A stretch of 35,687 bases of DNA from an uncultured Erysipelotrichaceae bacterium (GCA_902783915.1 CACZSX010000030.1:1-35687); one strand, 5' to 3'; shown: positions 1 through 4,702, counted from the first letter of the stretch. Numbers and translations: made by a program. The notes: generated by a model from the sequence alone, not told the origin.

Positions 1-471
1 ATCACTATAATCTTCATAATTTGGTTCGGGAAGTGGGTTATATTCTGGATTATCAATTATATCCCAACAATCAGTACAATTTAAATAAAATTCATCTATT
101 GTCATATATCCATCTTTTTGAACATCTTGATATTTTAACATATCTACTAGTGGTTTAAAATCATCAAATGTATCTTTTGTACCGGGTTTTATTGGTACAG
201 AAAAAGATCGATTATTAGATGCTTTTGGGAAACTCTTTTCATCTAAAGACATAGTTTTATTTACATATTCCCAAAATATTTTTTGGTTTTCATATGATAA
301 TTCTCCAATAGCTACCCATGAAAAATCATTATCATAATCGTTTGTATGCGTAGTTAATATATTCATATCCCATAAGTATTCAATAATTCTTTGATTTTCT
401 GGTATTACAAATTCACCAATATTTTCCATAACTGTTTTTATATCTGTTGCTACATATTCATACTTTGCCAT
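1..471 (-). CDS. hypothetical protein, first 157 codons only (gene runs off the left edge of the window)
   Basis: Not in the supplied ORF track because it has no stop inside the window. Manual minus-strand translation from ATG 471..469 (AGGAGA 6 nt upstream) gives MAKYEYVATDIKTVMENIGEFVIPENQRIIEYLWDMNILTTHTNDYDNDFSWVAIGELSYENQKIFWEY... with no stop down to position 1. The start overlaps the TGA stop (460..458) of the upstream 460-aa ORF by 14 nt. No family recognised. Confidence 0.6.
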   Translation of the reverse strand, partial: MAKYEYVATDIKTVMENIGEFVIPENQRIIEYLWDMNILTTHTNDYDNDFSWVAIGELSYENQKIFWEYVNKTMSLDEKSFPKASNNRSFSVPIKPGTKDTFDDFKPLVDMLKYQDVQKDGYMTIDEFYLNCTDCWDIIDNPEYNPLPEPNYEDYSD

Positions 472-1840
472 ATGTACTCTCCTGTTCTTTAAATCTAGAC
501 ATCCATTCTATAAATATCCAATATTCTTCACTATCTTTTATGCCTTCATACCCCTCTTCATACAATATTCTATGTATAAGTTCTTTTAATTCATTAGGTT
601 CTACCCATAACATTAATTTATCTCTTGAATTATCATCATTTGTAAAACCTTTATAATCACCATTTTCTACCGAAAATAATGCTCTACCAAGTTGAATTGA
701 ATTATATTTATCTATTGTACGTAATGATGCATTGATAAGTGCTTCTTTTTGTTCATCGTATACTATTCTTCTTGCCATATGAATATCTAACATTTCTTGC
801 ATAAGCTCTCTTATAGACTCTTTTCTAGTAAATAAATTATAGTTTCCCTCATTGGAAAATCTTTTAAAGCGTGTTATCGCTGACTCTATATCTTCTTTTT
901 TTGATATAGTTAAAAATGCATAATCATATGCCTCTTTAATCTCGTCTGGTACATCTTCAACAATTCGCAAATCTTTTCTTTCTAATCTTTCTATATTTTC
1001 AATTGCTTCTTTTACACTTTCTTTATCTTTTGCAAAACTATAAAATTTATACAAATCTATAAGTTTACTCTCTTTTCTTAATGCTATTAACAATAATTCT
1101 GTTACTCTTTGGTAATTTGCAAGCATTCTAGAAGAATTTTCAAATTTTCTTCCCCTATGAAAATCATTTATATTATTACCATTAATAAATACTTCTTTAT
1201 ATCTTTTACCTACATACTCATAAAATGAACTATATGATATCGAATCTAAATTATCTTTCATTGAATTAATATATTCACTTATCCATTCAGATACTACTAT
1301 ATTATAAGATAATTCACCATCCCATGTACATGAAATTTCTCCATCAGAAAATGTGAATGGATTTGGATCTATTAAACCTTCTTTTATATATTCATCTGAT
1401 GTTACAAATTGTTTTATTGCCAACAATGAATTTATACTATCTACTCTGATTGCCACATCATCAAATCTAGTATAATTACTTACTTTTGACATATGCGGAA
1501 TATTATATTTGGAAATAAAATCAAATAATTTATTAACTCCATGATATATGTGCAATTCATCAAGCGGTACATACATTTTTAAAAATGTTTCGGGAAATAA
1601 ATCCCCATTATATCCATAAAATTGGCAAAAATTTTTCATTTCAGGAGTTTCATATACATCTATATTTTGCACTTTATCAAATCTATCTTGCCATGAAGCA
1701 AAGTAATTTCTAATGGGTTTCTTTTCTGTTCCTAATCTAATTAAATTTGAATAAACTAAGTTTGAATCTATAGTTACTCCATTTTTTGATATTTCAGCTA
1801 TTAAATGTAGGAATTCATCAATCCTTTTTATCTTGTCCAT
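458..1840 (-). CDS. hypothetical protein, 460 aa, function unknown
   Basis: Long uninterrupted ORF. It overlaps both the upstream 51-aa ORF and the downstream partial ORF. The C-terminal half is highly charged and looks helical. I recognise no catalytic motif with confidence. Confidence 0.75.
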   Translation of the reverse strand: MDKIKRIDEFLHLIAEISKNGVTIDSNLVYSNLIRLGTEKKPIRNYFASWQDRFDKVQNIDVYETPEMKNFCQFYGYNGDLFPETFLKMYVPLDELHIYHGVNKLFDFISKYNIPHMSKVSNYTRFDDVAIRVDSINSLLAIKQFVTSDEYIKEGLIDPNPFTFSDGEISCTWDGELSYNIVVSEWISEYINSMKDNLDSISYSSFYEYVGKRYKEVFINGNNINDFHRGRKFENSSRMLANYQRVTELLLIALRKESKLIDLYKFYSFAKDKESVKEAIENIERLERKDLRIVEDVPDEIKEAYDYAFLTISKKEDIESAITRFKRFSNEGNYNLFTRKESIRELMQEMLDIHMARRIVYDEQKEALINASLRTIDKYNSIQLGRALFSVENGDYKGFTNDDNSRDKLMLWVEPNELKELIHRILYEEGYEGIKDSEEYWIFIEWMSRFKEQESTYGKV

Positions 1841-1973
1841 TAATTTTTTCTACTACCTCTTTTAAATCAATAGTATCTTCGTTGTCTTCTATATTTTTTT
1901 CTATTTCTTCTTCATCTATTCCGAAATAGAATTCTTTTTCTTTCCCATCAATAATTACTTTACCCATTCCCAT
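1818..1973 (-). CDS. small acidic protein, 51 aa (below the ORF-track size cutoff)
   Basis: Manual translation gives MGMGKVIIDGKEKEFYFGIDEEEIEKNIEDNEDTIDLKEVVEKINGQDKKD, with 17 D/E versus 8 K by hand count. An AGGTGA Shine-Dalgarno lies 6 nt upstream of ATG 1973..1971. The TGA stop at 1820..1818 overlaps the first 23 nt of the 460-aa ORF. Confidence 0.5.
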   Translation of the reverse strand: MGMGKVIIDGKEKEFYFGIDEEEIEKNIEDNEDTIDLKEVVEKINGQDKKD

Positions 1974-1998: not shown

Positions 1999-2028
1999 AT
2001 TATAGCATAAAAAACAAGTAAAATGCAA
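1999..2028 (-). promoter_or_regulatory. sigma-A-type promoter for the 51-aa/460-aa/partial-ORF unit
   Basis: Minus strand reads TTGCAT (2028..2023), an 18-nt spacer, then TGcTATAAT (extended -10, hexamer 2004..1999). This is followed by the SD and ATG at 1973. It sits just downstream of the terminator at 2044-2073. Confidence 0.5.
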
Positions 2029-2043
2029 ATGAATGTAAATTTA

Positions 2044-2073
2044 CAAAAAAAGAAGAAGTTTAAAACTTCTTCT
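2044..2073 (-). terminator. rho-independent terminator ending the eight-gene operon
   Basis: Minus strand has AGAAGAAGTT-loop-AACTTCTTCT (10-bp perfect stem, 2073..2051) followed by TTTTTTG (2050..2044). The hairpin overlaps the TAG stop of the Gfo/Idh/MocA gene. Confidence 0.8.
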
Positions 2074-3013
2074 AATTACAATACTTACTACTAAAACTTG
2101 CATATTCTTTCATAATAGTACTAAAATCTATTATTCTCTTTTTATAAATTGAATTAATTCTTTTACCACTTAAATATTCATAAAAATCTTTTAAACAATA
2201 ATACATATTATCATCCACTATTTCGGCATCCATTATTTTATTTTTATCTTTATATATAACTACTCTACTATTTCTTAAACACATCAATTCTTTATCATAT
2301 ATTGAGTATTCAACGCCTATTACTACATTACCTTCGCAATATATAGTCATACCTTTATGTAATGTATTAGATGTTAAATCACATTGGTGACTTATTATTA
2401 CATTCTTATTTCTTAACATTGAAAAACTATATCCATGATTTTTTAATGTTCTATCAATATTCTGCATATCTTTTTGTTCAAGCATTAATAATTCACTTCT
2501 ATTACCAAGTAAATAATCACATATATATACTTGATGTGGTACTTCTATTTCATAGTTTTCTGTTATTTTACTACTCATTCCACGCATATTAATACTTTCA
2601 TTAATTCTATTTTTTGAAAAGTTAGTCATTATTGATTTTATTTTCAATTTATTCTTATCTAAATAATCTTTTACAAAGTTAGTTGTTAATGAATATATAT
2701 AGTTTTGAATCATAACTATATTTAATTTTGGATGTTTATTAAAGAAATCTTCTTCTACTACAAATGGTTTTTCTACAATTATGTTATAAAGTCCAAGTGA
2801 TTCACAAGTTTCAATTACTTCTACAAATACTTCTTTAGGTGTAACTATATCAACTATTACATTATTAACATCTAATTTATTATCTTTTATTACTTTCTTT
2901 ATTGGTATGTCTACATCTGCATAATATAAATTTGGTACTTTATCAAATTTCTTATATGACATTGTATGTATTCTGCTTGCTTTACCTTTTCCTACTAATA
3001 TTATATCTTTCAT
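2072..3013 (-). CDS. Gfo/Idh/MocA-family NAD(P)-dependent oxidoreductase
   Basis: N-terminal Rossmann start MKDIILVGKGKASRIH, plus the family-typical EKP motif (IIVEKPFVV). AAGGAGG RBS. The start overlaps the upstream stop by 4 nt. Confidence 0.7.
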   Translation of the reverse strand: MKDIILVGKGKASRIHTMSYKKFDKVPNLYYADVDIPIKKVIKDNKLDVNNVIVDIVTPKEVFVEVIETCESLGLYNIIVEKPFVVEEDFFNKHPKLNIVMIQNYIYSLTTNFVKDYLDKNKLKIKSIMTNFSKNRINESINMRGMSSKITENYEIEVPHQVYICDYLLGNRSELLMLEQKDMQNIDRTLKNHGYSFSMLRNKNVIISHQCDLTSNTLHKGMTIYCEGNVVIGVEYSIYDKELMCLRNSRVVIYKDKNKIMDAEIVDDNMYYCLKDFYEYLSGKRINSIYKKRIIDFSTIMKEYASFSSKYCN

Positions 3014-3978
3014 AATTCTTGTAACCTCCTTGAAATTTCTTTACAATTATTAAATAAATATTCACATAACTCTGTTCTAAAATGTGCAAATTCTAAGATA
3101 TTATTATTATCTTTTTTATAATATTCTTTATAACCATATGTACTTCTAAATAATTGGCACATATATACATATGGCATATATTTTAAATCATACTTATTAA
3201 GTGGTACACTCTTCATAAACTCCTTAACATATATTATTAAATTATCTATATCTATTTTCGCATTCTTACACTTTTTATCCATATAACTATAACTTCTAAT
3301 TATTTCCCATACAATAGGTAATTTCTTAACTCTTATAAAATCTATTATTGCATTTACTTTATCTTTATCATATATAAATTGTAAATAACTAAAATCTCCG
3401 TGTGATGTATAATGTGATATTTTACTTATATCTTTCAAATCATCTTTAAAATTATTCATCATTTCTATCTTTTTATTTAAATCAGCAACAATTAACTTAT
3501 TATTGCCTAGCTTAATTATTTCATTTAATTTTTCTATATTTTTATCAAAATCATACCAATTTTCATCTTCTATTTCTTTTGTGTCATAATTCAATAAATT
3601 CTTTACTAAAAGTCCATGAAGATAACCACATTCTTTTATCTCTTTTTTTGTTGCCGCAAATTTATCTTTTGTTGTTCCTTCTATAAAATCTTGTACAATT
3701 AAATATCTATCATTAACTTTTACTAAATATTTATCATCAATAGTTTTTAAATAAGTTGGTACTTTAATTTTATCTTTTAAATAATTTATTACTTTTACTT
3801 CTTTTTCTATTTTTTCTTTATCATATTTTTTTTGATATAACTTTAAAATATAATTATCTACTTTATATATTTCTGCTGATCCACCACTTACTAATCCAAT
3901 ATTATTTACTTTTACATTGTAATATTCTTTAAATATTTTTTTAATCTTACTTTTATTTAATACCTTCTTTTCTATCAC
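3010..3978 (-). CDS. APH/CotS/choline-kinase-like phosphotransferase (paralog 1)
   Basis: Kinase catalytic loop HGDFSYLQFIY and metal-binding IIDF motif. It is clearly paralogous to ORF 11103-12107 (WEIIRSYSYMDKKC, KYDLKYMPYVY, FRTELCEYLF). I prefer the GTG start at 3978 (GGAGG 6 nt upstream), which aligns with the paralog's N-terminus. The ORF track's ATG at 4026 would add 16 codons and lacks an SD. Confidence 0.75.
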   Translation of the reverse strand: MIEKKVLNKSKIKKIFKEYYNVKVNNIGLVSGGSAEIYKVDNYILKLYQKKYDKEKIEKEVKVINYLKDKIKVPTYLKTIDDKYLVKVNDRYLIVQDFIEGTTKDKFAATKKEIKECGYLHGLLVKNLLNYDTKEIEDENWYDFDKNIEKLNEIIKLGNNKLIVADLNKKIEMMNNFKDDLKDISKISHYTSHGDFSYLQFIYDKDKVNAIIDFIRVKKLPIVWEIIRSYSYMDKKCKNAKIDIDNLIIYVKEFMKSVPLNKYDLKYMPYVYMCQLFRSTYGYKEYYKKDNNNILEFAHFRTELCEYLFNNCKEISRRLQEL

Positions 3979-4702
3979 AAATAGCCTCCATAATTTTCTT
4001 TTCATCACCACGTATGAAATAAGCATCTATATTTAATTTTTTAATAAATTTTAATATATTTTCTCCTGTATCTTTTAATCTAACATATTTAGTAAGTAGT
4101 GGCATATCATAATGCCAATTAGAATATCTAAATATATTTTTAATATAATAATCTTTATTATCTATCTTATTTATGCTTAATTTCCCTTCTGCTGCTATTC
4201 CCTTAAGTATTACTATTTTTTCTAATTTTATTTTTTTATTAACACTCTTTTTATCTAAAAATGATATACCATTTTTATCCTTATTAAACGAACTACCTAA
4301 AACCATTTCATTAGCTTTTATCCATGTTTGATCAGCAGAATTAACTTCATACCCATACTTTGTTGCTTCAATAGCAAGAGTACTTTTTCCTACTTTAAAA
4401 TCTCCTAATATAAGTATCCCTTTATTATCTTTGCTGATAACAACTGAATGAATATATAAATTATCTTCATCATTTATTAAGTATGCGATTAAGTTATTAA
4501 GTATTGGATATATATCTGTAGTATTTACTTTAGATTCTATTTTTAATTTATAATCTAATACAGATATATCTATCAAATTATCGTTAATTATTATCTTATT
4601 ATCTGTATCTACATAATCCGCTTCAAATTGCTTTAATCTATTAAATACTGTATCAAAGGTGCTTTCTACATTGATTAAAATATTTTTAATATTAATCGTC
4701 AT
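3953..4702 (-). CDS. HprK-like P-loop protein (putative kinase), 249 aa
   Basis: YIHSVVISKDNKGILILGDFKVGKSTLAIEATKYGYEVNSADQTWI matches the HPr-kinase C-terminal pattern (H-x-x-x-V...G-x-L-I-x-G-x4-GKS...[SA]-D-[DQ]). GAGGTGG RBS. Overlaps the upstream gene by 11 nt. Confidence 0.6.
   Translation of the reverse strand: MTINIKNILINVESTFDTVFNRLKQFEADYVDTDNKIIINDNLIDISVLDYKLKIESKVNTTDIYPILNNLIAYLINDEDNLYIHSVVISKDNKGILILGDFKVGKSTLAIEATKYGYEVNSADQTWIKANEMVLGSSFNKDKNGISFLDKKSVNKKIKLEKIVILKGIAAEGKLSINKIDNKDYYIKNIFRYSNWHYDMPLLTKYVRLKDTGENILKFIKKLNIDAYFIRGDEKKIMEAICDRKEGIK

Follow-up and report, generated by a model that had tools for sequence, protein, structure and literature searches.

The window considered here, a stretch of 35,687 nucleotides from an uncultured Erysipelotrichaceae bacterium (GCA_902783915.1; CACZSX010000030.1:1-35687), is the whole of contig C30 of a 0.92-Mb, 66%-complete metagenome-assembled genome. 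Its beginning carries a cassette of two overlapping genes, encoding an acidic microprotein of 51 amino acids (aa) and a protein of 460 aa, with all cassette features on the minus strand. The microprotein (1818..1973) is read from an ATG at 1973 preceded by the Shine-Dalgarno sequence AGGTGA (1985-1980); an alternative GTG start at 1982 would extend it to 54 aa, and three other assemblies of the same species call the 51-aa form. Its open reading frame (ORF) overlaps by 23 nucleotides (nt) that of the large protein (458..1840), a soluble cytoplasmic protein made up of a lyase-like N-terminal domain (N-domain) and two IreB-like repeats. The large gene in turn overlaps by 14 nt a third ORF (1..471, minus strand; Shine-Dalgarno sequence GGAGAG), present in the window as the first 157 codons of a gene for 232 aa. 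Both overlaps, the ribosome-binding site and composition of the small protein (17 Asp and Glu, 8 Lys and Arg; pI ~4.3) and the truncation of the third ORF agree with the original prediction, which a model had made from the sequence of the window.

The operon upstream of the cassette ends in an intrinsic terminator (2051..2073, minus strand) with a 10-bp stem, a 3-nt loop and a T-run; a terminator scan found two terminator-like sites in 2.4 kb, against 0.3 expected. The candidate cassette promoter (1999..2028, minus strand) was read directly from the sequence. Its -10 element, TATAAT, is perfect (2004-1999) and stands just after TGc (2007-2005), forming an extended -10; the -35-like TTGCAT (2028-2023), separated from it by an 18-nt spacer that ends in TGc, matches TTGACA at three of six positions. 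Because its -35 is weak, the promoter is missing from the list returned by the consensus scan, and the call of this putative promoter rests on the extended -10. The original prediction had placed TGcTATAAT and TTGCAT directly after the operon terminator; terminator, -10 and -35 are all found, the -35 as a weak one.

The conserved unit is a self-contained, translationally coupled pair, not the three-gene module first proposed. Of 31 distinct loci, 26 have a small acidic ORF upstream of the large gene and overlapping its start, and the idea that a tiny acidic ORF is the coupled partner of the 460-aa protein is borne out by its presence at these homologous loci. The ORF encodes an acidic product of 44-66 aa and overlaps the large gene by 8-38 nt at every one of 13 distinct loci from homologues both close and distant, some only 24-37% identical; in further genera, a small upstream overlapping ORF is found in 13 of 18 cases. 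It is also called by gene callers on independent assemblies. The third gene adjoins the pair only in the species of the window and in its closest relative (G003), so that the pair recurs in other genomes and the trio does not, homologues of the third gene being solitary in other taxa. Elsewhere, the pair is followed by uvrC, a DHH-family gene, a membrane protein gene or another gene, and its flanks vary even within the genus. All-against-all clustering of the neighbourhoods of 29 loci yields no recurrent neighbour except uvrC, and this only within the genus. The conserved unit is taken to be the pair because the third gene adjoins it rarely and no neighbour recurs. The accessory-looking operon beside the cassette, regarded earlier as relevant context, loses that standing on the same evidence, and a link to its APH-like or HprK-like kinases was rejected, as they are not co-conserved with the pair. 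At one further locus (L012:250-1287, G006:C68), the pair is preceded by a gene matching Amidoligase_2 of Pfam, an arrangement not seen at the other loci.

The third gene is a lineage-specific passenger, co-transcribed here and independently inherited. Longer public contigs of the same species complete it leftwards, as had been suggested, to 232 aa (complete copy at L066:7001-7699), and carry the 51-aa, 460-aa and 232-aa genes followed by uvrC, a racemase gene, hrcA, grpE and dnaK. Its product has conserved IPEN, QDVQKDGYMT and GHMRYK motifs and a confident AlphaFold2 model (predicted local distance difference test score, pLDDT, 89.2). This model has no fold match in the PDB (best E 0.16), and the family libraries gave nothing above noise, only a sub-threshold match to DUF6108. 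Homologues fall into ~33 clusters, all unannotated, and in other taxa their genes often lie beside aspS or hisS.

The large protein

The N-terminal ~255 residues of the large protein (1076..1840, minus strand; limits approximate, drawn from Foldseek matches and conservation) make up a HopA1/LanY/LanKC-lyase/OspF-like domain. An AlphaFold2 model of the 460-aa protein, based on a 25-sequence alignment, reached a pLDDT of 90.5 and a predicted template modelling score of 0.76. Compared with the PDB by Foldseek, the model has top matches with probabilities of up to 1.00, headed by HopA1 (4rsx, E 4.6e-4, template modelling (TM) score 0.55 on target; 4rsw). HopA1 is followed by LxmY, the lyase subunit of the lexapeptide dehydratase (9dk1_B, 9dk3_B and 9dk2_B), by the lyase domains of the class III synthetases ThurKC, PneKC and SalKC (including 8sap_B and 8sam), and by SpvC and OspF (including 2p1w, 3i0u and 2q8y). 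All these proteins are members of the phospho-Ser/Thr beta-elimination lyase superfamily, whose fold the N-domain shows in the model. The original prediction had voiced a faint resemblance to HopA1 and LanKC domains, which these matches vindicate, and the stretch that it quoted (KMYVPLDELHIYHG...RFDDVAIRV) is the conserved core of the lyase-like domain. The Pfam HopA1 family (PF17914) was not found in 299 genomes of the phylum, with no candidate in the genome of the window; its profile has no match in the window's protein at E<=1 and none among 25 family members at E<=5. The catalytic residues are mapped by inference.

Conservation was measured over 177 cluster representatives of the 460-aa family, which have a mean identity of ~23%. 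Residues Y30, K88, Y90, D94, H97, H116, S118, K119, R125, D127, R132, D174, S178, N180 and Y190 are conserved at 79-99%, with individual values of 99% for K88, Y90 and D127, 97% for R125, 96% for K119 and D174 and 90% for R132. The active site of SpvC comprises K104, H106, K136 (the base), R148, Y158, D201, R213 and R220, that of ThurKC K65, H67, K94, K117, D152, R163 and R191, and that of CaoY R187, K219, R229 and Y236, the His and the greater part of the Arg pocket being absent there (PMC9486802, PMC10604976). Going by order, secondary-structure position and spacing, K88-x-Y90 would match K104-x-H106 of SpvC, and K119 would stand at the position of the general base, K136. K88 and K119 lie on consecutive strands and are 31 residues apart, compared with 32 in SpvC, 29 in ThurKC and 32 in CaoY. 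R125/R132 may occupy the position of SpvC R148, and D174 would correspond to D201, following the putative base by 55 residues as against 65 in SpvC and 58 in ThurKC.

IreB is a substrate of the PASTA Ser/Thr kinase and a binder of MurA, and the C-terminal half of the large protein consists of two tandem IreB/ReoM-like (UPF0297) repeats, a feature beyond those noticed in the original prediction. Repeat 1 (residues ~295-362; 755..958, minus strand) contains the motif G-N-Y-x-x-F-T-R-x(4)-R and repeat 2 (residues ~363-426; 563..754, minus strand) the motif G-D-Y-x-x-F-T-N-x(4)-R. Aligned with IreB by hhalign, the 177-sequence family alignment matches at residues 295-362 (probability 94%, E 1.3e-7) and a second time at residues 351-426 (E 1.3e-3). 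A hidden Markov model built from 22 canonical IreB proteins of relatives finds two or three consecutive matches in many members of the family (lowest E 7e-11). In a PDB profile search with 49 diverse members, the top four matches are the four UPF0297 entries (7y86, 7y8z, 6tif and 5us5); such a diverse profile was required, as a profile of close homologues gave no match in a PDB sequence search. Foldseek recovers ReoM (6tif), IreB (5us5) and CcpS (7y8z) with TM scores of 0.57-0.69 on target. The Pfam IreB profile (PF06135) matches one of 25 members scanned, at 2.5e-5, and family frames in three genomes too. Several IreB-like repeats without a lyase-like domain occur in large frames of 2032 aa (G012:C5, ~13.2-14.2 kb) and 957 aa (G153:C1, ~91.1-91.7 kb).

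In both repeats, the shared motif G-[ND]-Y-x-x-F-T-[RN]-x(4)-R aligns with the IreB loop SGDPxYI...AR, which holds D50, a residue needed by IreB to bind and inhibit MurAB (PMC12077105). The repeats cover positions 9-73 of the IreB profile and start after the phospho-acceptor Thr tail. Since IreB acts as a dimer (PMC12077105), the two tandem repeats could form a pseudo-dimer. The large protein holds IreB-like domains yet is not an IreB orthologue; its gene lies outside the alaS-ruvX slot, and its repeats are internal, not a stand-alone protein of ~80-100 aa with a Thr tail. This bacterial family can reuse the IreB-like repeat as a module.

Canonical IreB itself is encoded in 136 of the 151 genera of the bacterial family and in none of the nine genomes of the window's genus. 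Relatives have the gene order ireB-ruvX-DUF1292, and alaS directly abuts ruvX in five of the five genus genomes inspected, at slots devoid of ireB (G000:C83 (L091), G001:C59 (L087), G003:C2 (L089), G004:C13 (L090) and G007:C1 (L088)), so a gap in the assemblies does not explain the absence of ireB. Still encoded in the genus are a single PrkC-like kinase (~575 aa, activation loop ...NSTQLTQTNS...), a single PP2C phosphatase and a single MurA-type enzyme. As canonical ireB has been lost in the genus, the large protein may have taken over part of its role. Complementarity between IreB and the family as a rule over the 151 genera was rejected, the family being only weakly enriched among IreB-less genera.

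The microprotein

The microprotein is marked by a short conserved motif around a threonine. In the window it reads E32-D-T34-I-D-L37 (1863..1880, minus strand; T34 codon at 1874-1872), and T34 is the sole Ser or Thr of the protein. An alignment of 13 orthologues shows an N-terminal beta-like segment, G-[KR]-[IV]-x-[IV]-x-G ... [FI]-x-[FL]-G-I, an acidic patch, [DE]-E-I-E-x-N, and the motif proper, [LF]-[ED]-[DN]-T-[ILVM]-[DE]-[LI]-x-x-[VI]. Its Thr is invariant in all 13 and is kept in 9 or 10 of 13 small ORFs from further genera; the core [ED][DN]T[ILVM] is found in ~22 of 26. Across orthologues, this Thr is encoded by ACT, ACA, ACG and ACC and the following Leu by TTA, CTT and CTA, and such synonymous variation indicates that the constraint acts on the peptide. 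One orthologue (L069:3182-3424, G378:C1) has three tandem LEDT/LENT motifs, which suggests, at the level of sequence, a short linear motif for recognition or modification. A Rosetta-stone fusion of the microprotein to the large protein was also sought; the one motif match among 186 proteins is attributable to chance.

A short peptide gene immediately before an enzyme gene, with LxmY among the best structural relatives of that enzyme, recalls the pathways for RiPPs, peptides made on the ribosome and modified after translation. The microprotein would then be a precursor, and its Thr would be phosphorylated and then converted by the LanY-like lyase, through elimination, into dehydrobutyrine, as in class V lanthipeptides and thioamitides, the kinase being the product of an APH-like gene 1.2 kb upstream. 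This is very improbable. An APH-family phosphotransferase is indeed encoded at 3010-4026, but in a separate operon, and it does not stand beside the pair in G003 or at the other inspected loci; more broadly, no kinase, cyclase, protease or exporter is co-conserved with the pair among the 29 loci. The threefold motif of one orthologue would suit a precursor, but the conserved part of the peptide is the would-be core and not a leader. Cys is missing from 12 of the 13 aligned orthologues, which have at most a few Ser or Thr, and the C-terminus of the peptide overlaps the next gene; a lanthipeptide-type precursor is unlikely because of the lack of Cys and this overlap.

Distribution and genomic context

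The other genomes of the genus (8 of 8) all encode homologues of the 460-aa protein, as do 3 of the 28 other genera first sampled, and a profile search extends the family to 33 of the 151 genera of the bacterial family. A global protein library contains 1071 clusters at 50% identity, 624 of them with E<=1e-30, under record titles such as 'Bacilli bacterium', 'uncultured Mollicutes bacterium' and 'uncultured Clostridium sp.'. The pair is conserved, and unannotated, in small-genome gut bacteria. No Pfam domain and no name beyond 'hypothetical protein' is attached to the 460-aa family, and searches of all three proteins of the window against Pfam, NCBIfam, PADLOC and PHROGs gave nothing above noise. 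A search of 50,697 phage records, 72,556 plasmids and IMG/VR found no relatives of the pair, and an origin from mobile elements was rejected on these grounds. The flanks of the cassette are housekeeping genes, among them uvrC, rpoZ and those for PFOR, RecU and PBP. The large protein evolves rapidly, with 59% identity between the window and G003 as against 94% for UvrC; in G001, G004 and G007, its identity is ~40% compared with 73-76% for the Ser/Thr kinase. Some genomes have extra copies of the family. In G007, an ORF of 6451 aa (G007:C3, ~152.9-172 kb; L022:2896-19998 and beyond) contains the lyase-like N-domain twice together with a transglutaminase-like core; apart from this the ORF has no Pfam match, and the gene for a RecD2-type helicase adjoins it.

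The main rival to the reading preferred below is a conflict module, toxin-antitoxin-like or of another kind, whose outward form the cassette also has. In such a module, the large protein would be a toxic phospho-lyase and the acidic microprotein its labile antitoxin; the IreB-like part would be a bait that targets an essential phosphoprotein, such as the activation loop of the PASTA kinase, for irreversible inactivation, and the module would serve in addiction, stress arrest or phage defence. Such a role is rather unlikely for the pair, though much about it would fit: the small acidic gene is upstream of and overlaps the large one under the cassette's own promoter, evolution is faster than in housekeeping genes, occurrence is patchy (33 of 151 genera) with flanks that vary within the genus, some genomes have extra copies, the N-domain is reused in the 6451-aa multidomain protein, and one divergent member lies beside a type VII secretion locus. 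However, no PADLOC, PHROG, Pfam or NCBIfam model of a toxin, antitoxin or defence protein matches, copies in phages, plasmids and IMG/VR are lacking, the gene is retained in nine of nine genomes of the genus, the microprotein has no DNA-binding domain, and the flanks are housekeeping genes rather than defence islands or mobile elements. The original prediction, which had likened the small protein to antitoxin, immunity or chaperone partners in toxin or defence modules and had proposed a look at proximity to defence islands, gains no positive support from these searches, and no such proximity was seen.

The type VII secretion locus in question (G016:C20, L023:1754-11102) has a divergent member of 415 aa, preceded by an acidic ORF of 44 aa, directly upstream of a YukD-like gene, and includes genes for an EssC of 1533 aa (FHA plus FtsK/SpoIIIE) and a WXG100-like protein. 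By analogy with HopA1 and its chaperone ShcA in type III secretion, the large protein could be imagined as a type VII substrate with the microprotein as its small chaperone, and EssC is encoded in the genome of the window and in seven of eight congeners. This is nevertheless highly unlikely. The linkage is confined to the one locus in G016, and the type VII genes of the window's genome are on another contig; G031 has the family without EssC, and many genomes with EssC are without the family. No LXG/WXG-type N-terminus is found in the protein, and its IreB-like domains point to a cytoplasmic target. The type VII locus of the window's genome (G000:C33, L034:4326-10311) is a minimal one, in which a DUF1292-like gene of 128 aa, an EssC gene of 1541 aa, a YukD-like gene and two WXG100-like genes stand directly before rplU-rpmA-obg.

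Interpretation and comparison with known systems

The explanation tentatively preferred here is that the pair may be a signalling module of the phospho-Ser/Thr lyase type, in which a peptide serves as pseudosubstrate or substrate. The pseudo-dimer of IreB-like repeats would dock the large protein onto the partners of IreB, namely the single Hanks/PASTA kinase and possibly MurA, and the lyase domain would bind phospho-Thr there and probably remove it irreversibly. The microprotein would occupy the lyase groove through its Thr motif, either as a pseudosubstrate cap or, once phosphorylated in trans, as a substrate; its T-x-acidic sequence would resemble the pT-x-pT/pY sites attacked by OspF-type enzymes.

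Several observations weigh against this interpretation. The residues were mapped onto SpvC, ThurKC and CaoY by order, position and spacing and not by superposition. The general-acid His is replaced by Tyr (Y90, Tyr in 99% of representatives), and no counterpart of SpvC R213/R220 is evident, there being no conserved Arg 11-12 residues after D174, so the N-domain could be a phospho-reader or pseudoenzyme. On the side of the IreB-like repeats, the window's own 460-aa protein falls below the Pfam IreB threshold, and the notion that the microprotein is the detached phospho-acceptor tail of IreB was rejected (hhalign E 0.1, with motif registers that differ). Canonical IreB is kept in most of the other genera with the family, which is therefore not simply an IreB substitute. 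Lastly, rapid divergence and patchiness (33 of 151 genera) are features that characterise conflict genes more than core signalling.

Part of this evidence would suit a non-catalytic scaffold. The lyase-like domain would then read phospho-Thr or be a pseudoenzyme, the large protein would act as an adaptor of the IreB type, for instance in regulated proteolysis or in inhibiting MurA, and the microprotein would be a structural subunit. This too is unlikely. It would accommodate the Tyr in place of the catalytic His, the missing equivalent of the R213/R220 pocket, the retention of the partner-binding loop in the IreB-like repeats and the loss of ireB in the genus, and the literature consulted on these lyases reports no lyase activity of HopA1 itself. 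Yet the Lys/Tyr/Lys/Arg/Asp set is 96-99% invariant at ~23% mean identity, which is more typical of an active site, and LanY lyases are active without the general-acid His and most of the Arg pocket (PMC9486802). Given the change of His to Tyr and the lack of an R213/R220 counterpart, the N-domain should be nearer to the LanY than to the OspF type, or else a non-catalytic reader; judged by these residues, the missing His and Arg pocket rule out the OspF type and not the LanY type.

To our knowledge, the phosphothreonine lyases described so far are either effectors that are injected into eukaryotic hosts or biosynthetic enzymes of lanthipeptides and thioamitides, and IreB/ReoM has been described only as a small stand-alone protein that acts as a switch linking the PASTA kinase to MurA. 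The novelty lies in an unannotated family of more than 1000 clusters (50% identity) that fuses lyase-like with IreB-like domains. Under the lyase-type signalling reading, it suggests that some gut Firmicutes may handle Ser/Thr phosphorylation by irreversible elimination, or through a lyase-derived reader, in their own cytoplasm. Bacterial signalling would gain, in the large protein, a candidate for a new class of 'erasers', the conserved microprotein would acquire a function, and the coupling of the PASTA kinase to cell-wall synthesis in a genus without ireB would be explained. In its strongest form, which is doubtful, the reading would make the large protein the first self-directed bacterial phospho-Thr lyase, as opposed to an effector aimed at a host or a RiPP enzyme; tethered to an IreB-like pseudo-dimer, it would erase PASTA-kinase marks irreversibly, be restrained by the microprotein and have displaced IreB in one genus; the marks erased would be on the kinase itself or on its substrates, and the displacement of IreB would concern the control of cell-wall synthesis. 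Were the pair a toxin-antitoxin module instead, the chemistry of the toxin would be new for that class.

Among known systems, LanY and HopA1 proteins (LxmY, CaoY, 9DK1; HopA1 4RSX and 4RSW) are the best structural matches of the N-terminal ~250 residues. In a putative parallel to CaoY (R187/K219/R229), a Lys (Arg in CaoY) on one strand is followed by a Lys ~31 residues later on the next strand and then by a conserved Arg, and, as in LanY systems, the catalytic His is lacking and a short peptide gene adjoins. Unlike LanY and HopA1, the cassette protein has no match to Pfam HopA1 (PF17914) and no partner LanK kinase, is fused to IreB-like repeats and is not a secreted effector. Nor does the cassette have the Cys-containing precursor or the genes for peptide tailoring, export and proteolysis of LanY systems (29 loci); the adjacent APH-type kinase and the Ser/Thr/Cys-rich precursor that define class V LanK-LanY systems are likewise missing from the pair. 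SpvC and ThurKC belong to the same fold superfamily according to Foldseek, and the order K-x-[H/Y] ... K ... R ... D would parallel K104/H106/K136/R148/D201 of SpvC and K65/H67/K94/K117/D152 of ThurKC, though the Foldseek E values are only 0.17-0.5, Tyr stands for the general-acid His and R213/R220 have no counterpart. The partner modules differ as well, being a docking motif for mitogen-activated protein kinases or a kinase-cyclase fusion in the SpvC and ThurKC types and IreB-like repeats here.

Type II toxin-antitoxin systems share with the cassette the gene order, the overlap of start and stop, the possession of a promoter of its own, rapid divergence and patchy spread, but the cassette differs from them in having no member of a known toxin or antitoxin family, no DNA-binding domain and no mobile or defence-island context. 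The second half of the large protein finds its closest parallel in IreB, ReoM and CcpS. In contrast to IreB, the repeats are not a stand-alone protein of ~90 aa, have no Thr tail, are fused to an enzyme-like domain and in most cases coexist with IreB; like IreB, they span nearly the whole profile (9-73), including the loop and helix of D50, and are assigned the same fold by Foldseek.

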